Assembly (NCBI GenBank): GCA_002070355.1
Contig: MWDC01000001.1
Span: forward strand, 67,994-131,993
Length of the DNA stretch: 64,000 bases
Reading direction: 5' to 3'
Origin: Parcubacteria group bacterium ADurb.Bin159
GTDB taxonomy: Bacteria > Patescibacteriota > Patescibacteriia > UBA2591 > MWDC01
Part shown: one piece after another, positions 16,432 through 63,271 of the stretch
Numbering within the stretch: the stretch's first letter is position 1
Layout: each line of letters opens with the position of its first letter
The notes under the pieces: model-generated
Told to the model about the DNA's origin: nothing
Database searches by the model: none
The model's input: only the letters and a program-made list of their open reading frames with translations
Position numbers and translations under genes: made by a program

Positions 16432-17124
16432 TTATTTCTTTTGATTAGTTGTATAATCACATTTCGGGTAATTAGAGCATCCGTAAAATTCTCCAAATTT
16501 GCCAGTTTTTTTCACTAAATTTCCGCCACAGCATGGGCAAATTCGAGACGCTTCTCTTGCCTTATCTTTATCCTTTTTAGCCATTTTGATATACCGAATA
16601 AGTTTGTATCCATCTATAAGTTCAATTGGCTTATCTTCAGCAAATTTCTCAGCTTCAAGTGTAAATTTATTTGTGGTAATAAAATATGCCTTTCCATTAG
16701 CAATATGGTCAGCCAAAGCACCATAGAAATCTCTGACATCGCCAACCGTTACCTCTGAGGTTATAAACTTTTTGCATTGAATGTAGCTTTTTACTCCGTC
16801 TTTTTCAATAATAACGTCAATGCCTCCGTCGTGCGATCCGCCGACTGCTTTAGATTTGTAGCCAAGCCGCGAAAACAAATCGGCAATATAATCCTCAAAT
16901 TCCGATGGCTTCATGCCACGAAGCCATTGCAATAGATCACGATCCGAACGCCATTTTTCTCCTTTTCTGAATTTTCGGCGAATATGCCAATTATCAATTT
17001 CCAAATTAAGCCAATAAAAGAATAATTTCATAACAACAATCGCCAATAAAACTGCCCAAAGCGGCCATAGCTTCCATAAAATCGGTAGTAAATTTTTAAT
17101 TATTTCCCAGAAATTAATTTGCAT
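16432..17124 (-). CDS. Membrane-anchored Mrr-cat (PD-(D/E)XK) restriction-endonuclease-like protein with a C-terminal topoisomerase-type C4 zinc ribbon
   Basis: N-terminal TM helices, then DLFSRLGYKSKAVGGSHDGGIDVIIEKDGVKSYIQCKKF (Mrr_cat signature D..D..QCK), then CPCCGG...CSNYPKC. Confidence 0.65.
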   Translation of the reverse strand: MQINFWEIIKNLLPILWKLWPLWAVLLAIVVMKLFFYWLNLEIDNWHIRRKFRKGEKWRSDRDLLQWLRGMKPSEFEDYIADLFSRLGYKSKAVGGSHDGGIDVIIEKDGVKSYIQCKKFITSEVTVGDVRDFYGALADHIANGKAYFITTNKFTLEAEKFAEDKPIELIDGYKLIRYIKMAKKDKDKAREASRICPCCGGNLVKKTGKFGEFYGCSNYPKCDYTTNQKK

Positions 17125-17130
17125 ATAATT

Positions 17131-20100
17131 TTAGTTTATAATCTCCTCCAATCTCCAAAAAGTGCTTCCACCTTCACGAATCAAATCGTCGATAAGTTTA
17201 TAAGTATCACCTTTTGTTTCGGCATTTTCATAGAGAGTCTTAATTGCCCCAAACCATTCCTCGTCATACATAAATGGCATGCGCATTTTACCACCTCGCA
17301 CATCACCTTCAAGTAAAGAAAGACGGGCAATCTCCAACGTATCTTTAGGTGCAGCTTTAGCCAATTCATTGATAGACTTAGTGAGAGCGTAATCCCATTC
17401 CAAAACACCCTTAGTTTTTTCTAAGGTCGCTTTTATTTGTCCAGCTAACCAGGCTGGTTCAAAGATTTTTTTCTCAAGATTCATCCAAAATCCAAACGCA
17501 ACAAATAGCTTCGGGTCGTCATAATTCTTAAGCAACCATTCCCAAAATTCAGTTAATCTTTTTTTAATTGCTGGGTCTTTTTTCAACTGCTCATTTACAC
17601 GATCATCATCGCCAGAAATGAACATCCGCCCGATAAAACTGATAAACTTGCTTTGCCGTTCAACATCTCGCTTCCAGAATTTCTTGAAAAGAGAATGATC
17701 AAACCCGAATTTTTCATGATAGACAACAAACGCCAACGCCAAATGAACAGCTATTCCTTCCTTTAGTTCTTTGAAATATTTGCGTTTTGAGTCCTCGTTG
17801 CCAGTCAAACTTAAGCCACGCTCATATAATTTTTGGAATTCTTGATCAAAGAATATTTCCTCATAAAGATTATTAGCAAGATATCCTTCCCAAGCAGCAA
17901 GATAAAGGTGTTTTTTAGTCGCTTCTTCTGGAAAAATTTGAGTCAAAAGCCCATGTATCCAATCTCTGTCACGGAAGTAGAAAGATGGTAGATAATATCC
18001 AAACATAAACATTAAGGCACGAGTATCTTCTTTTTTTAAGACTCTCTCATAGAGCTCCTTAATGTCTACGCTAATTTTAATCTTATCATCTTTTGAAAAT
18101 TGCTTTCCGTCTTGGTAAACAAACAACACAAAAGCCTGAAACGCCCGACCACGCACCGAATTAATCGCCATCGTAAACGGATCACTAACATAATTTTCTT
18201 CCTTATCGCCAGGGGAATGGGTCTTTATCGTCGCTGTTCCTAGCTCTTCGTCTTGTGGTTCTGGATCGGGGTATACTAAAAGATAGCTGAGAATCTCGAA
18301 AAGCTGACTGCGGTATTTGGAGAAATCTATAAGAATTTTACCGTCGTTTTCACTCAATAATTCTTGCAGGACATCCGTCATCACCGAGTGCACTCCAGTC
18401 CAACTCAAAAGCCATGCGTCAAACTTCTCTCGTTCCCTGATTTTATGGTTAAAGGCTTTTGCAATACCCGAATCCTTAATAGCAATAAAAACTTCTATCA
18501 GTTTATCCCACTGGATATCTGCCGCCTTTGTTTTGTCAGCACGTATAGCTTCTTGAATGCCTCGAAAAAACGAGTAAGTATAATGCTCGTCGAGAACATC
18601 CCTCTCAAAAAATAAACTGGCGTTCTGGATATAATCCTGTAATCGCTTAGCAATATCAACACGCAATTGTTCCTCTACGCCTTTAGCATTTAAGGGATTC
18701 AAAAAATCATCACTTGTGTTCTCTTTGCTCAAAGCTTCTGGCTTCCAGTCATTTCTTAATTTTTTGGCAATGTCAGCAATGGAAAGTTTACTAAATTCCT
18801 CTTGTGAAACTGCAGCTCTTGGTTTTACAAAACCGCTCACTATTTTTCCAATGGACGGTTCGGGTTCAAAAGTAGGATCACATTTTTTACCGAATATTTT
18901 TTCACAATCTTCTTTTTCTTCTGAAGTCAAAGAGTCATAAATACTGGAAAGAATCTGCCAGCCATCGCGCCTATACCATTGTTCTTCTTTTTTATCTTCA
19001 CGACTTTGTCCAAAATGCTTAAAGACATTCGATACATATTCACGCTGATAATCGAAATTGAGGACATTAAAGCTCTGTTTAAGGGCTTTCTTGTACTCTG
19101 TTCCAGATTCAATCTCATAATAATGTTTACCATCCTCCATCACCTCAAATAATTTAAAAAAGGACGCCTGTAATTCTGCCTGAAAAGCAACGGGACACAA
19201 ACTCAAAACAAAAAGACGCAGTCGCCACATCAACCTGCTTTCTGGTAAGGTTTGAATATATTTCTTATAAACCTCTCTGACCAATTCTGATTTGTCACAA
19301 TTATTGCCAATTAGTCTTTGACTGAGTGCTTTAATGGTCACTACTAAATCTTTGACGTTTTCTTGATCTGAATAATGTTTTTCATCGCCCAATTCCAAAG
19401 AAAAAAAATCAACATCAAAAAGATAAAAAGGGTCATGAATCGGAAATACTTCATTCTTCTCGGCGTCTTCGCCCAAACGCACGATTGCCGCCATCGTTCT
19501 TGTTGTAATCTCTAATGCTTTTTCAAGATATTGATCGCCTACAGCCACTAAATACTCAAAGACTTTCGTGTAAGAAAGGTCTGTGAAATAAAAAGGATTA
19601 TCCGATGGATAATCACGAGAAGTTGGTTTTGTTTCTTCTTTTGCTCTCACAGTAAGCACTGCTTCGGCAAGGACCAAGATATTCTCATAATCCTTAGCAG
19701 CGGCAAGTGTTTGGAATATTTTTTTATAATCAAATCCCCATTGATTAAATACGCTCATCAACCGCACCCAACCATCATCACGAATTTTCGGCACTATTCT
19801 CGCTAACTGCTCCGCTGGCAGAGAACTGCAAATTCTCAAAAATTGATCGACAATTTCGGGATTAAAATTATCTTTTGGGATAGAAACCGAAAGCATAATA
19901 TCTACCACTTCTTTCGCTTTTTTCTCCGCTATTCTTACAAGATAATTCAGTTCTGGGGTTGTTCGATATCCATATCTCGTTGGATCGTCGACTTTCTGTT
20001 TAATCACATCTAAGAGCCCATTATTCCAAAGCCAATCAAGCCAATTCTCATCTGCTTTTGTAAAAAAATATTGTCGTGCATCAAGATTTAAACCAATAAG

Positions 20101-20145
20101 TTCTCGAATTTTCTCTGGATCAAATTTTGCTGATTGTTTATCCAT
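17131..20145 (-). CDS. Large (1004 aa) hypothetical protein; no ATPase, nuclease or other recognisable motif
   Basis: Long uninterrupted ORF packed 5-6 bp from its neighbours in the R-M/Mrr operon. Predicted mostly alpha-helical. No Walker A. Confidence 0.6.
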   Translation of the reverse strand: MDKQSAKFDPEKIRELIGLNLDARQYFFTKADENWLDWLWNNGLLDVIKQKVDDPTRYGYRTTPELNYLVRIAEKKAKEVVDIMLSVSIPKDNFNPEIVDQFLRICSSLPAEQLARIVPKIRDDGWVRLMSVFNQWGFDYKKIFQTLAAAKDYENILVLAEAVLTVRAKEETKPTSRDYPSDNPFYFTDLSYTKVFEYLVAVGDQYLEKALEITTRTMAAIVRLGEDAEKNEVFPIHDPFYLFDVDFFSLELGDEKHYSDQENVKDLVVTIKALSQRLIGNNCDKSELVREVYKKYIQTLPESRLMWRLRLFVLSLCPVAFQAELQASFFKLFEVMEDGKHYYEIESGTEYKKALKQSFNVLNFDYQREYVSNVFKHFGQSREDKKEEQWYRRDGWQILSSIYDSLTSEEKEDCEKIFGKKCDPTFEPEPSIGKIVSGFVKPRAAVSQEEFSKLSIADIAKKLRNDWKPEALSKENTSDDFLNPLNAKGVEEQLRVDIAKRLQDYIQNASLFFERDVLDEHYTYSFFRGIQEAIRADKTKAADIQWDKLIEVFIAIKDSGIAKAFNHKIREREKFDAWLLSWTGVHSVMTDVLQELLSENDGKILIDFSKYRSQLFEILSYLLVYPDPEPQDEELGTATIKTHSPGDKEENYVSDPFTMAINSVRGRAFQAFVLFVYQDGKQFSKDDKIKISVDIKELYERVLKKEDTRALMFMFGYYLPSFYFRDRDWIHGLLTQIFPEEATKKHLYLAAWEGYLANNLYEEIFFDQEFQKLYERGLSLTGNEDSKRKYFKELKEGIAVHLALAFVVYHEKFGFDHSLFKKFWKRDVERQSKFISFIGRMFISGDDDRVNEQLKKDPAIKKRLTEFWEWLLKNYDDPKLFVAFGFWMNLEKKIFEPAWLAGQIKATLEKTKGVLEWDYALTKSINELAKAAPKDTLEIARLSLLEGDVRGGKMRMPFMYDEEWFGAIKTLYENAETKGDTYKLIDDLIREGGSTFWRLEEIIN

Positions 20146-20150
20146 ATTAC

Positions 20151-20756
20151 TTATTTACCTCCATTTATATCTTCTATTAGCTGAGGATTTATTCTCAAAA
20201 CCTCATCAAGCATTTGATGCACATCAAGCTGCCTTGTCAATGCCTTATTCATAATTTTTTCAAACTCCACTAAAAGTTTTTCAAACTCAACCTTATTAAA
20301 AGAAGAAAAATCAAAATTTTTATCCCATTGAGGATCAACTCCATGATGCGTTATATCATTAAGTTTTTTCCACAGAGGTTCTACTTTACTGCTATAGAAA
20401 TTTTTATCAAAACTTTCATTAGAACTTTCATCAAAATTTTTATCAACCGTTACAGAGCCAAAATTTTTAAACGCATCCATTCTCTTACTTGAAACTTGTT
20501 TCACCTGAATACTTAAGAATGGATAAAGAATCTCTCGTAAGGAGTTTGCCGCTTGGGCAATACGATCGGGATTACTTTTACATTCTTCCCTAATAGCAAA
20601 AACGGCACCTCGAAACATATCTGAAGGCTTTATTTTTAGTCCTCCTCGCTCATGCCACTCATCTAGGCGTCTACATAAATTTTCTTGTCCATCGGTTAAA
20701 CGCACGGGTGGGAGAGCATTATTTCCTATAGATTGTAGTGATGCATCACCGCCCAT
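20151..20756 (-). CDS. Hypothetical 201-aa protein with a DKNF(D/Y)xSS triple repeat
   Basis: ORF-track protein with 3-5 bp spacing to the restriction endonuclease upstream and the 1004-aa ORF downstream. Confidence 0.5.
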   Translation of the reverse strand: MGGDASLQSIGNNALPPVRLTDGQENLCRRLDEWHERGGLKIKPSDMFRGAVFAIREECKSNPDRIAQAANSLREILYPFLSIQVKQVSSKRMDAFKNFGSVTVDKNFDESSNESFDKNFYSSKVEPLWKKLNDITHHGVDPQWDKNFDFSSFNKVEFEKLLVEFEKIMNKALTRQLDVHQMLDEVLRINPQLIEDINGGK

Positions 20757-20759
20757 AAA

Positions 20760-21665
20760 TTATATATCTCTCAAGATATTCCTTAAAAAACCTTTTTTGA
20801 TGAAATTAATATTTAAGACATAATCCATTTGTTCAATTGCCTTCCTGATTTGATTTTGTCCTTGTCGCCAGCCATTTCCATCGGTAATCCAAACAAATTG
20901 CCAGCCACTATTTTGGAGCTCTCTTTGCCGATTTATGTAGGCATCAACAATCTCTTGAGGTTTTGAACCCTGCCCGCTGTAAAAATTAACTTCCATTGAT
21001 AGAAGTTTTGTTCCTTTTTTGATCGCAAAATCGGGAGTTCTATACCGGAGTTTCTTCGGGATTTTTACACCGCGTTCTTCGAATTTACTGAACTTCCCCT
21101 TAGGGAATATCTCAATATTCTTAAATTCTTTGGTGATATTTTGAAGTTCTTCCTCTACCACTTTTTCCATAAAACTACCACTTCGATTCTTACGTGCATT
21201 GCTATCCAAACCTACTTCAACCCCTAAGAGATAATCGTTAAGAACTCGAATGATTTTGAATAACTCTTGGATACCACTTTTTTTTACAAATTGAATAAAT
21301 TTCTTGATGTCACTTGGGGTTAAATCTTTTGAACAATCAAAACAACATACTTGATTTTTGCTTATATCCTCTAGTACATCAAATTTCTCATCACGCATTG
21401 CAACAAGAAGTGGTAAAACCCTTGCTGTCTTAGGGTATTCTGTTAAAATTTTCTCTAAATCTTTATCAAAATTTTTGGATTGAGTAAGTGTTCCCAAAAT
21501 TCCAATTTCAACTTTGTATTTCTCTACATTTGATTTAACCTTTTTCCAATTTACAAAAAAATCGTAAGTGCGATTAGTAGATAATAGTGAGCCAATAAAT
21601 GCTTCGTTAATCTGCTCAATATTAGTAAAACCAAAAAATGATTTATATGTTTGTATTTTTGCCAT
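20760..21665 (-). CDS. Type II restriction endonuclease, DpnII/MboI family (predicted GATC specificity)
   Basis: GVEVGLDSNARKNRSG and EVNFYSGQGSKP...WITDGNGW...LNINF align with R.DpnII motifs recalled from memory. Confidence 0.7.
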   Translation of the reverse strand: MAKIQTYKSFFGFTNIEQINEAFIGSLLSTNRTYDFFVNWKKVKSNVEKYKVEIGILGTLTQSKNFDKDLEKILTEYPKTARVLPLLVAMRDEKFDVLEDISKNQVCCFDCSKDLTPSDIKKFIQFVKKSGIQELFKIIRVLNDYLLGVEVGLDSNARKNRSGSFMEKVVEEELQNITKEFKNIEIFPKGKFSKFEERGVKIPKKLRYRTPDFAIKKGTKLLSMEVNFYSGQGSKPQEIVDAYINRQRELQNSGWQFVWITDGNGWRQGQNQIRKAIEQMDYVLNINFIKKGFLRNILRDI

Positions 21666-21670
21666 ATTGC

Positions 21671-22513
21671 TTAAATTAATTTAATAAACATTTGCTTGCG
21701 CTTAATTAAGTCTTTGAGTCGCTTTTTTGAAAGTTCAAGATATTTTTTCTCATTATCAATCCCTATAAATTTTCTATCGTATAGAATAGCAACTAAACCA
21801 GTAGTAGAGCTCCCTGCGAAAGGATCGAGTATTATGTCGCCAGGATTTGTGCTTGACAGAATAATTCTTTTCAAAAGCTCCATTGGCTTTTGTGTGGGGT
21901 GTTTACCAAATATTTTTTCTTCTGGCTTGGGAGTCCCTATTGCCCACACCGAACGCATTTGTTTATTTTGCCGATGGATAAGGTCGTTTCTAAACGCACG
22001 CATCTGCTCGTAATTGAACACGTGCTTTGCTTTCTTTTCTTTACGTGCCCACAATAATGTTTCGTGGCTGGCAGTAAAATAACGGCAACTTAAATTGGGA
22101 GAAGCATTGGGTTTATACCAGGAGATATCATTTAAGATATGATAACCGCTTAATTGAAGTGCGTAACCACATTGATAAATTGAGTGATAAGTCCCACTAA
22201 TCCAAATTGTACCGTAAGGTTTAAGAACTCGACGGCAAGCTTGAACCCAAGTAATATGAAAATCTAAATCCTTTTGAAAACCTTTGCTTTTGTCCCAATC
22301 TCCCTTATTAACACTTACACGTCTGCCAGCGTGAACGCTAAAACCACCATTAGAAAGATTATACGGTGGATCAGCAAAAATCATATCAATCGAATTGTCT
22401 GGAAGCTGTTTCAAAATCGACAGATAATCTGAACAGTATAAAACAAAATTACCTTCAGAAAAATAAGGTTTTTTCTTGATAGAAGATAGAACTTTTTGAG
22501 AATTAGTTTCCAT
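21671..22513 (-). CDS. Beta-class N6-adenine DNA methyltransferase, M.DpnA (DpnIIB)-like
   Basis: Motif IV IFADPPYNLSNGG precedes motif I DPFAGSSTTG. Strong similarity to M.DpnA through ...NLSCRYFT...KHPTQKP.... Confidence 0.8.
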   Translation of the reverse strand: METNSQKVLSSIKKKPYFSEGNFVLYCSDYLSILKQLPDNSIDMIFADPPYNLSNGGFSVHAGRRVSVNKGDWDKSKGFQKDLDFHITWVQACRRVLKPYGTIWISGTYHSIYQCGYALQLSGYHILNDISWYKPNASPNLSCRYFTASHETLLWARKEKKAKHVFNYEQMRAFRNDLIHRQNKQMRSVWAIGTPKPEEKIFGKHPTQKPMELLKRIILSSTNPGDIILDPFAGSSTTGLVAILYDRKFIGIDNEKKYLELSKKRLKDLIKRKQMFIKLI

Positions 22514-32482: not shown

Positions 32483-33085
32483 TCATTTGGCTTCCTCTCC
32501 CTCATTCCCGATCTGGGTTTTGAGATTGTGCCAGCGACGGAGTTGCTCTCCGTGAATCCATACCTGCGAAAGGATGGACACAGCACAGCTATACACGAAT
32601 CCTGTGATGCCTTCGTTATCGGCAAGCTGAGACGCTTCTTCAGCGCATCCTTCGACCGTATCGCCGTTTGCGATCCGACCTTCCATTAAGCGAGCCCACC
32701 GCTCAGCGAAGCGAATAACTGCACTTCCGTATCCGTCGGTGTTGGCAGCCACAATTTTCTTCCAGCCTTCCTCGTCCCGAAGCGTCATCTTCTCGGGAGC
32801 AGTCATGAGAGCTCCTTCGAGTATGAGATTGTGGCGTCGCTGAGCTTCGTCAGCTTTGCGTTGCCGTTCCTTATACTCTGGAGAATTGACATACTCCTCG
32901 TGACGACGATTGGACTCAGCGCTGTAATACTTCACGATCGCATCGGCGTTATCGCCAGGGTTGGCTGTGAGTTCGATGTCATTAAACTTCGCCCTCACAA
33001 TTCCCTTCGTCTTCTTGGCCATCGCAACTATTGTGCGAGCGGTTTCGCTGATGTTTTCACCAGCAAGAGGTTTATACGTCTTCAT
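32483..33085 (-). CDS. Hypothetical 200-aa protein encoded in a GC-rich (~50%) foreign segment
   Basis: Clean ORF with a strong SD (AAAGGAGAAAT) 7 nt upstream of the ATG. Its composition differs markedly from the flanks. Confidence 0.5.
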   Translation of the reverse strand: MKTYKPLAGENISETARTIVAMAKKTKGIVRAKFNDIELTANPGDNADAIVKYYSAESNRRHEEYVNSPEYKERQRKADEAQRRHNLILEGALMTAPEKMTLRDEEGWKKIVAANTDGYGSAVIRFAERWARLMEGRIANGDTVEGCAEEASQLADNEGITGFVYSCAVSILSQVWIHGEQLRRWHNLKTQIGNEGEEAK

Positions 33086-51866: not shown

Positions 51867-51905
51867 ATTTATGCTACAATTTTATCTATTAATAACAAAC
51901 AACAA

Positions 51906-51976
51906 GCGGGATTAGTTGAGCGGCTCAACATCACTCTTCCAAGGTGAAAAGACGGGTTCGACTCCCGTATCCCGCT
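51906..51976 (+). tRNA. tRNA-Gly (TCC), no encoded CCA
   Basis: Manual fold: acceptor GCGGGAU/AUCCCGC, D-arm GUUG-AGCGGCU-CAAC, anticodon loop CU-UCC-AA, T-arm ACGGG-UUCGACU-CCCGU, discriminator U73 (typical for Gly). Confidence 0.75.
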
Positions 51977-52430
51977 TCTTTACTTTGTAATAACTCCTTA
52001 CAAGACAAAATAATTCTACTTAAATAGAAGTATGTCGAACCCGAGGAAAGGGGTCGGGAAAACCTGGGTTTTCCCGTGGCGGAAGTACTGAAACCGAAGG
52101 GTTTCAGGGAGCGAAGCGACGGGGCGACTCCCGTATCCCGCTTTTTAATTTGCTCTTTCTTTAGGGTAATAAATTTTAAAAATTGGTCAAGCCCCAAATC
52201 ATTCAAATTCAAAATTTAAAGTCATTTATTATGACTTTTTTATATTGAATTTAATCATTTTTTTGCTAAAATTAAATTATAAAATTTTTATTTCAAGGAT
52301 TTTTACTCTGTCTTTCTGTAGGGTTGATTGACTTACCGGAAATTAAAGGAAAAAAATATTCTGTTTAAAAAATAAATTTAAAAAACGAAGAATACCTTAA
52401 TAGGCAAATTTTACCCGAAATATAGAAATT

Positions 52431-54800: not shown

Positions 54801-56204
54801 TCAAAAAGAACCGCCGCCAATGGGCTGTCCCCAATGGACTTCTTTTATTTGCTTTTCAGGCAATTCATCCGGCGCTCCCAGCATCAAATCTTTAGCATCA
54901 GTTGTTTTGGGGAAGGCAATTACTTCTCTAATATTTGGCTCATTTCTTAAAAGCATTATTAAACGGTCAAACCCAAAGGCAATACCCCCGTGAGGAGGAG
55001 CCCCATATTCAAAAGCTTTTAAAAATTTTCCGAATTTTCTTTCTATCTCTTTTTTATTTACTTCTAAAAGGCGAAATATTTTATATTGAAGATTTGGATC
55101 ATATATTCTTAAGGCTCCTCCGGCTATCTCACAACCATTACAAACTAAATCATATTGATGAGCCCTTACTTTTAGCGGCTCTTTATCTAAAAGAGGGATA
55201 TCTTCTTCATAAGGAAGAGTAAAAGGATTATGAGTAGAAACTATTTTTTTCTCAGTTTCGCTATATTCAAATAAAGAAAAATCTCTAATCCAAACAAAAG
55301 CGAGCTCGTCTTTATCATCTTTATTTTCCCGCAAATCAGGTTTGTCGGTTTTATATTTTTCTAAAACATCTTGGGCTTTTAAATGAGGAAAAGGATATTT
55401 AATCTTTTTTTCAGGGAAATTTTCCTTAATTGTCTTAATTACCATTTCTTCCACTAAAGCTAAAATTTCTTCTTCTGTCATAAAACTCATTTCCATATCT
55501 AGTTGAGTAAATTCCGGCTGTCTATCGCCACGACTGTCTTCATCGCGAAAACAACGAGCGAATTGAAAATATCTTTCCATGCCAGCAATCATTAATAATT
55601 GTTTAAATTGCTGTGGCGCTTGAGGCAAAACATAAAACTTTCCCGGATAAAGACGTGAGGGCACAATATATTCTCTTGAGCCCTCCGGAGTTCCCTTAGT
55701 CAAATAAGGGGTTTCTATCTCTATAAAGCCCTTTTCATCCAAAAAATCTCTCATACTTTTAATCAAACGATAGCGGAAAGTTAGATTATCTTTCATTCGC
55801 TTATGACGCAAATCCAAATAACGGTAAGTAAGACGCGTTTCTTCTGTTGCTCTAATAATTTCATTATCAATAGTAAAAGGAGGAGTAAGGGAAGAAGAAA
55901 TAATTTTACCTCTTTTTATCTCTACTTCAATTTCTCCGGTTAATAAATCGGAATTTATTTGATTTTCTGGTCTTTTAACCACTTTGCCGATAATTTCCAC
56001 CACGTATTCCGGTTTAATTGCTTCGGCAATTTTTTTCAATTCTTCATTAATCCCTGAGGGAAAAACTATTTGAACTAACCCCGAATAGTCGCGCAAATCA
56101 GCAAAAATAATTTTACCCATTTTCCGTTTAGTGTTTATCCAACCGCATAAACGAACATCCTCTCCCTGTTTTTTTATTGTATCTTTAGCCAAAGTTCTTT
56201 CCAT
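54801..56204 (-). CDS. aspS: Aspartate--tRNA ligase (short form without a GAD insertion)
   Basis: N-terminal OB (VRLCGWINTKRKMGKIIFADLRD), FRDEDSRGDRQPEFTQLDME and GGIAFGFDRL. Confidence 0.8.
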   Translation of the reverse strand: MERTLAKDTIKKQGEDVRLCGWINTKRKMGKIIFADLRDYSGLVQIVFPSGINEELKKIAEAIKPEYVVEIIGKVVKRPENQINSDLLTGEIEVEIKRGKIISSSLTPPFTIDNEIIRATEETRLTYRYLDLRHKRMKDNLTFRYRLIKSMRDFLDEKGFIEIETPYLTKGTPEGSREYIVPSRLYPGKFYVLPQAPQQFKQLLMIAGMERYFQFARCFRDEDSRGDRQPEFTQLDMEMSFMTEEEILALVEEMVIKTIKENFPEKKIKYPFPHLKAQDVLEKYKTDKPDLRENKDDKDELAFVWIRDFSLFEYSETEKKIVSTHNPFTLPYEEDIPLLDKEPLKVRAHQYDLVCNGCEIAGGALRIYDPNLQYKIFRLLEVNKKEIERKFGKFLKAFEYGAPPHGGIAFGFDRLIMLLRNEPNIREVIAFPKTTDAKDLMLGAPDELPEKQIKEVHWGQPIGGGSF

Positions 56205-56294
56205 AATTTAGATTATAACAAAAAAGAAAAAAAGAAAAAGGGCAACTTAATGTTGCTCTTATTAAATACAATGTTTCCCCTCTTTTTTGTTTAG

Positions 56295-56367
56295 AGGGGT
56301 TGGCTGGAATCGAACCAGCATGAGCAGGCTTTCGCGCCTACTGCGTTGACCACTCCGCCACAACCCC
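56295..56367 (-). tRNA. tRNA-like gene with canonical acceptor, D and T arms but a non-canonical (6-nt) anticodon loop; isotype undetermined
   Basis: Acceptor GGGGUUG/CAACCCC, T-arm GCUGG-UUCGAUU-CCAGC. The central hairpin UAGGC-GCGAAA-GCCUG does not give a standard 7-nt loop. Confidence 0.5.
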
Positions 56368-56378
56368 ATTTTTTTTAT

Positions 56379-56606
56379 CTAATATTTTTCTATTATTTCT
56401 AAAATTTTATGTTTTTCTCTACTCCCCTTAATTATTTTTATATTTTTTTCAGAAATATTTAAGTAATTAGCTAATATCTTTTTTACTCTTTCGTTAGCCA
56501 TACCCCTTTCTGGCTTTTCTTTTGTTTTAATTTCAAATTTATCATTTGCTTTTTTTATAATCTCCTCTTCTTTTGATTTTGAGAAAACCGTAACTTTAAT
56601 TAACAT
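56379..56606 (-). CDS. DUF167 (YggU-like) family protein
   Basis: IKVTVFSKSK...KEKPERGMANERVKKILANYLNISEKNIKIIKGSREKHKIL matches the DUF167 pattern recalled from memory. Confidence 0.5.
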   Translation of the reverse strand: MLIKVTVFSKSKEEEIIKKANDKFEIKTKEKPERGMANERVKKILANYLNISEKNIKIIKGSREKHKILEIIEKY

Positions 56607-63196: not shown

Positions 63197-63271
63197 TGGT
63201 GCCGAGGGGCAGAATCGAACTGCCAACGCAAGGATTTTCAGTCCTTCGCTCTACCACTGAGCTACCTCGGC
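63197..63271 (-). tRNA. tRNA-Phe (GAA), CCA encoded
   Basis: Manual fold: acceptor GCCGAGG/CCUCGGC, D-arm GCUC-AGUGGUA-GAGC, anticodon loop CU-GAA-AA, T-arm GGCAG-UUCGAUU-CUGCC, discriminator A plus CCA. Confidence 0.85.

Follow-up and report, generated by a model that had tools for sequence, protein, structure and literature searches.

At 56295..56367 on the minus strand of the window, by which we mean the whole 64-kb stretch of Parcubacteria DNA that was analysed, lies a genuine member of the tRNA family whose anticodon arm is non-canonical. Its 73 nt run up to the discriminator U73, CCA is not encoded, and it is recovered by both ARAGORN and Rfam. Judged from its sequence and from that of its relatives, the gene is a member of a tRNA-Cys lineage that has kept the tRNA body and lost both U33 and the GCA anticodon. 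We consider it somewhat probable that it now is either an accessory of that lineage with a non-decoding role or a very recently disabled paralogue, and that in either case it would perform no standard triplet decoding. The host, Parcubacteria group bacterium ADurb.Bin159, belongs to a small clade of the Parcubacteria, within the candidate phyla radiation (CPR), and its DNA has a G+C content of ~32%, with housekeeping genes across the whole window.

Sequence and fold of the gene

The initial annotation had pointed to an odd tRNA-like feature at 56295-56367, and this is borne out by both search programs. Specifically, the Rfam tRNA model RF00005 matches with 51.2 bits against a gathering score of 29 (E 4.7e-8), and ARAGORN calls a 'tRNA-???' at 56294-56367 with a four-base anticodon (cgaa); an Rfam scan of the region gave no match to any RNA family besides tRNA. 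Read directly from the minus strand, the RNA begins 5′-GGGGUUG UG GCGG AGUGGUCA ACGC A GUAGG CGCGAAAG CCUGC UCAU and continues with GCUGG UUCGAUU CCAGC CAACCCC U. Its body consists of a perfect 7-bp acceptor stem, a 4-bp D stem with an 8-nt D loop, a 4-nt variable loop (UCAU) and a 5-bp T stem. The features that define the RF00005 cloverleaf are all found, namely the 7-bp acceptor stem, a D arm with G18 G19, a T arm fitting GTTCRANYC and a score above the curated threshold. Direct reading thereby agrees with the earlier description of a perfect acceptor stem together with canonical D (G18 G19) and T (GGUUCGAUUCC) arms.

The anticodon arm departs from this regularity. It occupies 56324..56341 on the minus strand and reads GUAGG-CGCGAAAG-CCUGC, which is 18 nt rather than the usual 17, and alignment to the Rfam tRNA model places one additional base in the anticodon loop. 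Two alternative folds are available to it: one has 5 bp in the stem and the 8-nt loop CGCGAAAG (56329..56336, minus strand), which is without U33, and the other has 6 bp and a loop of 6 nt, GCGAAA. In RNAfold, C32 and G39 are paired, which yields the 6-bp form, made of UAGGC/GCCUG plus G27-C43, and RNAalifold extends the arm by an A26-U pair, which accounts for the 7-bp stem that had been proposed as an option. The folding UAGGC-GCGAAA-GCCUG of the initial annotation thus agrees with both programs and with direct reading. Where a tRNA would have a 7-nt loop with U33 and a purine at position 37, the window gene has 8 nt with zero uridines, or 6 nt if the C:G pair closes. The earlier statement that no standard anticodon can be read holds as well, given the cgaa call of ARAGORN and a loop in which there is no U. 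Because of this lack of U, a single indel cannot recreate a canonical C/U-U-NNN-R-N loop.

This last point bears on whether the sequence itself is real, since the odd loop length, taken alone, would favour an indel introduced during sequencing or assembly of an otherwise ordinary tRNA, as had been suggested. An identical AspRS protein is encoded on 18 contigs, with aspS starting 90 nt downstream of the tRNA. Ten of these contigs were fetched: eight carry the identical tRNA, one carries it with G24A and one begins too late to include it. One more NCBI assembly, located by way of a YjbQ protein with 98% identity, supplied an eleventh contig; over 4.6 kb its identity is 99.78%, and its tRNA is again the same. 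The same sequence is therefore found in nine other independent assemblies (L001-L008 and L113), drawn from NCBI, JGI, ENA and Logan and produced by SPAdes, MEGAHIT, JGI and Logan pipelines. The sole variant among ten assemblies of the window species, G24A in the D stem (L009:4149-4221), turns the C11-G24 pair into a C-A mismatch. Nine identical sequences from different assemblers refute the indel, to which we assign next to no probability; moreover, the same extra base recurs in two contigs of a different lineage (L101 and L110), and a loop without U could not be restored by one insertion or deletion. A group I intron or mini-intron was likewise rejected, as the extra sequence is a single base; a published study of Patescibacteria introns treats large group I introns only (PMC13011429).

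A cysteine-type lineage with an expanded anticodon arm

The two contigs just mentioned, from different samples, belong to a sister lineage whose AspRS is 77% identical, and in both of them a tRNA lies directly upstream of aspS. The L101 tRNA, GGCGCUGUGGGGGAGUGGUCAACCCAGUGGGCUUGCAGGCCCACUCAUGCUGGUUCGAUUCCAGCCAGCGCCUCCA, scores 56.7 bits in Rfam and is assigned the anticodon 'tgca' by ARAGORN. The L110 tRNA has the same body and the arm GCAGG-CCUGCAAG-CCUGC, from which ARAGORN reads 'gc'. The 18-nt arm is common to the window gene, L101 and L110, and in all three the loop starts with C and ends with G, enclosing the interiors GCGAAA, UUGCAG and CUGCAA, respectively. The L101 and L110 interiors equal positions 32-37 of a cysteine tRNA (Y32, U33, G34 C35 A36, R37), and this together with the discriminator U73, which is present in all three genes, identifies the family as a tRNA-Cys lineage with a common one-base expansion. 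Both sister-lineage loops thus have a U directly 5′ of the GCA anticodon and a purine 3′ of it (U-GCA-R). Aligned to C-CUGCAA-G and C-UUGCAG-G, the window gene has no GCA; its equivalents of positions 32-37 are G32, C33, G34 A35 A36 and A37, such that the triplet in the place of the anticodon is GAA, with C before it and A after it.

GCA and U73 are identity elements for both CysRS and SepRS (PMC8762117). A scan of JGI metagenome contigs with a D-arm/T-loop pattern blind to the anticodon returned tRNA-Cys(GCA) only. The source of that tRNA is an unrelated 66%-GC soil bacterium, such that the match bears on isotype and not on phylogeny; the collection scanned is incomplete for JGI, as Ga0116239_10004389 and Ga0116149_1010366 carry an exact match yet were not returned. 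Similarly, with the anticodon arm excluded from the comparison, tRNA-Cys genes come out on top of a set of 43 tRNAs taken from the fetched loci, a small sample in which one locus (L096) had itself been chosen by its D-arm pattern. Canonical CPR tRNA-Cys genes (L012, L034 and L108) have U73 and the 7-nt loop CUGCAAA, and one of them is located near aspS. Set against canonical bacterial tRNA-Cys (GCA), the lineage shares U73, the D arm G10-N-N-G13 A14 G15 U16 G G U, the 4-nt variable loop and the 7/5 acceptor and T stems, and L101 and L110 also keep U33-GCA-R37. It differs in its arm of 18 rather than 17 nt, in the loss of GCA and U33 from the window gene, and in a G:C pair at 3:70 where C:G is usual.

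Cysteine codons are in ordinary use in this genome. The proteins of the window place them in normal Zn-ribbon and DnaG zinc-finger domains, which indicates that UGY still means Cys and, by extension, that the genome needs a normal tRNA-Cys, the gene for which would have to lie beyond the window. A link to SepRS/SepCysS was considered and set aside, the 64 kb analysed having no gene for SepRS, SepCysS or CysRS, and a search for CysRS motifs across all fetched loci returned none.

Neighbourhood and transcription unit

The tRNA gene is flanked on its own strand by two protein-coding genes. Upstream, a gene for a 75-aa PF02594 (DUF167-like) protein (56379..56606, minus strand) ends 12 nt before the tRNA; downstream, and outside the tRNA unit, is aspS (54801..56204, minus strand), encoding a 467-aa aspartyl-tRNA synthetase with the Pfam domains tRNA_anti-codon and tRNA-synt_2. 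A terminator scan, sequence comparison and RNAalifold agree on a terminator-like hairpin, GCAAC-AUUAA-GUUGC followed by a U-rich tract, between tRNA and aspS (56230..56256, minus strand), and L101 and L110 carry the equivalent GGCAAC-AAA-GUUGCC. A -10-like (TATAAT-like) box is also located between tRNA and aspS in both lineages. On the other side, a promoter scan gave a weak sigma-70-like match (TAGAGA, 18 nt, AATAAT; 56392..56421, minus strand) with 9 of 12 positions matching, a kind of match of which AT-rich DNA yields many; it is situated ~25 nt upstream of the tRNA 5′ end, within the end of the PF02594 gene, and may serve as the promoter. From the conserved terminator-like hairpin we infer that the tRNA forms its own transcription unit; its transcript would also be processed like a tRNA.

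These observations also speak to the suggestion that the feature might be a tRNA-like regulatory element, for instance a cis-regulatory or processing element of the aspS transcript. Such a role would suit its position, since in the window as in L101 and L110 it shares the strand of aspS and precedes that gene by 90 nt, and the filling of the same slot by ordinary tRNAs in many relatives can be counted on the same side. However, the terminator-like hairpin with its U tract and the TATAAT-like box separate the tRNA from aspS in both lineages, no T-box, leader or other cis-regulatory Rfam family matches, and the discriminator and body are of Cys type rather than Asp type. The linkage itself is not constant: the gene is missing from the aspS-upstream site in L099, whose AspRS is the most similar one found (79%), and in L102 and L011, from the lineage at 72%. 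In other relatives the slot is occupied by unrelated canonical tRNAs (Thr, Lys or Phe plus Asn) or is empty, pointing to a tRNA hot spot instead of a dedicated leader. We therefore regard a regulatory function of this kind as extremely improbable.

The synteny is shallow, given that the slot holds other tRNAs or nothing. Retrieval of 80 GTDB species-level loci around aspS revealed no counterpart of the odd tRNA, and the aspS-upstream slot in those loci contained tRNA-Thr(CGU), tRNA-Lys(UUU) or no tRNA. Look-ups based on YjbQ found no conservation of the YjbQ-PF02594-tRNA linkage outside the window species. Viral contigs were searched as well: a loop-specific DNA pattern gave chance matches only, none of them a tRNA, and a D-arm/T-arm pattern and a T-arm pattern gave zero matches. 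A derivation from the tRNA-Thr(CGU) that stands upstream of aspS in Komeilibacteria-like relatives was considered and rejected, the acceptor and D arms being unrelated.

Several features of the slot and its surroundings merit mention in their own right. Across Patescibacteria the aspS-upstream slot is a hot spot for tRNA genes, with Thr(CGU), Lys(UUU) or Phe plus Asn according to lineage (L027, L028, L032, L034, L051, L044, L053 and L102), and in L034 a canonical tRNA-Cys lies 1.5 kb upstream of aspS. A Campbellbacteria contig carries another ARAGORN 'tRNA-???' downstream of aspS (L070:6863-6937, minus strand), with a four-base anticodon (tata), a G-U-rich acceptor stem and a poor anticodon arm, in a sequence unrelated to that of the window tRNA. 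In the 3′ trailer of the window gene (56268-56302, minus strand), AGAGGGG is complementary to CCCCUCU, formed by the tRNA 3′ end and the trailer. Similarly, in L101 (L101:669-700) and L110, GGAGG stands opposite CCUCC, so that position 75 (U or C) and the base opposite it change together. This pairing could represent an alternative hairpin in which the 3′ end is sequestered, or a Shine-Dalgarno-like box may be present by chance; only 3 of the pairs were retained by RNAalifold.

Elsewhere in the window, canonical tRNA-Asn, tRNA-Ser and tRNA-Phe genes encode CCA, and a canonical tRNA-Gly(UCC) (51905-51978, plus strand) does not; because of this tRNA-Gly, the organism presumably has a CCA-adding enzyme. 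Next to the tRNA-Ser, a gene at 32483-33085 (minus strand) encodes a 200-aa protein matching Pfam Tad4, a Type I Thoeris inhibitor (E 2.7e-29), that is, an anti-defence-type domain in a CPR chromosome. A defence cluster at 16432-22513 (minus strand) comprises an Mrr-type endonuclease with a Top1 zinc ribbon, a DpnII restriction enzyme and an N6/N4 DNA methylase, along with 1004-aa and 201-aa proteins that have no Pfam match.

Selection on the body and possible roles of the RNA

When the window gene, its G24A variant (L009), L101 and L110 were compared over 22 base pairs, 94% of the cells were paired. Four pairs are double-compensatory (3:70, 5:68, 11:24 and 29:41) and one more changed via a wobble, against zero double changes in slid controls. 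Variation among unpaired positions is confined to the anticodon loop, affecting 4 of its 6 interior positions and 0 of the 25 others (Fisher P 5e-4), and indeed the D, T and variable loops of the window gene are identical to those of its orthologues. Where L101, L110 and typical tRNA-Cys have C:G pairs in the acceptor stem, G3:C70 and U5:A68 are found on the window lineage. Such compensated changes argue that the tRNA shape has been under selection on the window lineage, and are silent on selection after the loss of the anticodon.

In this same comparison the anticodon arm is shown to be by far the fastest-changing part of the molecule. The window loop differs from that of L110 by three substitutions (C32G, U33C and C35A), the direction of which is not firmly polarised by three distinct sequences from two lineages. 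L101 and L110, which are 98.7% identical over 2.4 kb and 99.4% identical in aspS, differ at 6 of the 18 positions of the arm (L101:627-644 versus L110:3608-3625) and at none of the other 55 tRNA positions. All six differences are transitions and they include two compensated pairs; given the local rate, such an excess has a Poisson P of ~1e-7. A smaller cluster of differences occupies the first 35 nt of the 3′ spacer, and the two contigs cease to be homologous precisely at the 5′ end of the tRNA. Recombination with a more diverged allele over a short tract could account for the arm differences, as could diversifying selection acting on the arm.

The window gene might be a plain pseudogene, an accessory tRNA-Cys copy recently knocked out by mutations in the anticodon loop and now without function. 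Both U33 and GCA have been lost, the absence of the gene from the aspS-upstream site in L099, L102 and L011 shows it to be dispensable at that locus, and the CCA encoded in L101 and L110 is replaced by CUA in the window gene. A perfect cloverleaf would fit a very recent loss of function equally well. On the other hand, a pseudogene would be expected to have disrupted stems or degraded conserved loops, and neither is seen: 21 of 21 pairs are intact as Watson-Crick or G-U pairs, two acceptor-stem pairs (G3:C70 and U5:A68) are double-compensatory on the window lineage, and the D, T and variable loops are unchanged. Nor is the absence of an encoded CCA diagnostic, since the canonical tRNA-Gly of the window shares it. 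We consider plain loss of function unlikely, although a serious candidate.

The reading that we favour, a tRNA-Cys-lineage accessory with a non-decoding role or a very recently disabled paralogue, would proceed as follows. The arm of the lineage has one additional nucleotide, a C placed 5′ of the normal loop and able to pair with G38. In the sister lineage the loop interior has stayed YU-GCA-R, a readable Cys anticodon with its U33, and in the window genome C32G, U33C and C35A would have removed the U-turn uridine and GCA, leaving GC-GAA-A and an RNA that probably no longer acts as a standard triplet decoder. Its persistence might then be explained by a role that rests on the 'top half' of the molecule (the acceptor, T and D parts), such as an amino-acid carrier or decoy, or by its disablement as a paralogue having been very recent. 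Cys codons would be read by another tRNA-Cys, encoded outside the window.

A decoding role is doubtful: the loop is without U33 and can be closed by a Watson-Crick pair, no Cys anticodon is present and the window already has a tRNA-Phe(GAA). Reading of UUY codons or of the quadruplet UUCG is in our estimation the less likely outcome. In the first of these schemes, an 8-nt loop stacked on its 3′ side would present GAA, followed by A37, to UUY codons, and the RNA would be either an additional acceptor for Phe or a missense tRNA charged with Cys. The 3′-stacked register does supply GAA and then A37 as a UUY reader would carry them, triplet readers with 8-nt loops are known, for example the yeast mitochondrial tRNA-Thr1 with the loop UUUUAGGU (PMC3113583), and acceptor-stem identity pairs have changed on the window lineage, as one might expect for an identity shift. 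Nevertheless, the near-universal U33 is replaced by C, U73 is not the Phe discriminator, CysRS requires C35 (PMC8762117), the C:G pair can shrink the loop to 6 nt and the canonical tRNA-Phe(GAA) at 63197-63271 would already serve these codons. A functional triplet decoder is for these reasons improbable.

The second scheme, a natural +1 frameshift suppressor or quadruplet decoder in which CGAA reads UUCG, had been anticipated by the initial annotation as a frameshift-suppressor-like tRNA, and we rate it as very improbable. It draws on the 8-nt loop, on the four-base anticodon reported by ARAGORN and on the fact that natural and selected tRNAs with 8-nt loops can read quadruplets (PMC3113583, PMC7803779). 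Against it, there is no U33 5′ of the quadruplet, and the same arm in the sister lineage carries an ordinary Cys triplet. A crude test across the 64-kb window found 3 UUCG sites with a +1 ORF continuation, fewer than for many other quadruplets, and none of them is a credible junction; the best falls inside an intact MraY-like gene. Of the explanations originally offered, therefore, only an otherwise unusual tRNA is supported, in the form of a real tRNA-family gene with a +1 arm design common to a sister lineage; the sequencing indel is refuted, and the frameshift suppressor and the regulatory element lack support.

More speculatively, the clade may maintain a dedicated, anticodon-independent RNA derived from tRNA-Cys, in which the body is strictly conserved and the arm is free, or driven, to change. 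Such an RNA might be a carrier for tRNA-dependent Cys or Sep chemistry outside translation, a decoy or resistant variant in an arms race against anticodon-loop nucleases or, for the window species, a natural missense tRNA that inserts Cys at UUY codons. We hold this to be distinctly unlikely, and the support for it comes from the 6 of 18 arm differences between two strains otherwise 99.4% identical (P ~1e-7).

Comparison with known expanded-loop and cysteine tRNAs

Expanded anticodon loops are very rare among the natural tRNAs of bacteria, and the 8-nt loops of the cited literature are a mitochondrial case or laboratory suppressors (PMC7609411, PMC3113583, PMC7803779). [quoted passage not shown] If it is a dying paralogue, it would serve as an annotation warning for CPR genomes, in which 'undetermined' tRNAs may be real genes and not assembly errors.

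A review of non-canonical tRNAs describes one 8-nt-loop case, the yeast mitochondrial tRNA-Thr1 (PMC7609411), which has the anticodon UAG and decodes triplets (PMC3113583). Like the present lineage, it has a natural 8-nt loop, one that arose by remodelling of another isoacceptor (PMC3113583, PMC7609411), and L101 and L110, whose 8-nt loops contain U33-GCA, might function likewise. It differs in being mitochondrial and in having a U directly 5′ of its anticodon, whereas the window loop is without U and its ends form a Watson-Crick C:G pair. The 6-bp anticodon stem that this pair would create is known from tRNA-Sec, tRNA-Pyl and one mitochondrial tRNA-Ser (PMC7609411). The +1 suppressors SufB2, sufD and SufJ share one extra anticodon-loop nucleotide with the window gene (PMC7803779, PMC4238358). 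These 8-nt-loop suppressors are laboratory-selected mutants of normal tRNAs, in which U33 is kept and the anticodon, extended by one base, can still be recognised (PMC7803779, PMC4238358); the window gene, in contrast, has the 8-nt loop and lacks U33 and a four-base anticodon in that setting, and no credible target of the shift was found in the 64-kb window.

Also comparable are the selC* tRNA-Cys and allo-tRNAs, non-canonical tRNAs of Cys or Ser type in which Cys identity (U73) goes together with an anticodon other than that of Cys, and in which the body is conserved and the anticodon free to vary (PMC7609411). The selC* tRNA-Cys are charged by a CysRS without an anticodon-binding domain (PMC7609411), and the group as a whole is served by synthetases that disregard the anticodon, a precedent for charging independent of it (PMC7609411). 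They are built differently, with 8/4 or 9/3 acceptor and T stems, a long variable arm and a 7-nt loop, as compared to the 7/5 stems and 4-nt variable loop of the window tRNA. By this comparison, a 7/5 bacterial tRNA-Cys with a C:G-closed 8-nt loop matches none of the known cases considered. What appears to be new here is a chromosomal Cys-type tRNA lineage with a conserved +1 anticodon arm in reduced-genome Parcubacteria, in which one member has kept a Cys anticodon and the window gene combines a perfect body with the loss of any readable one.
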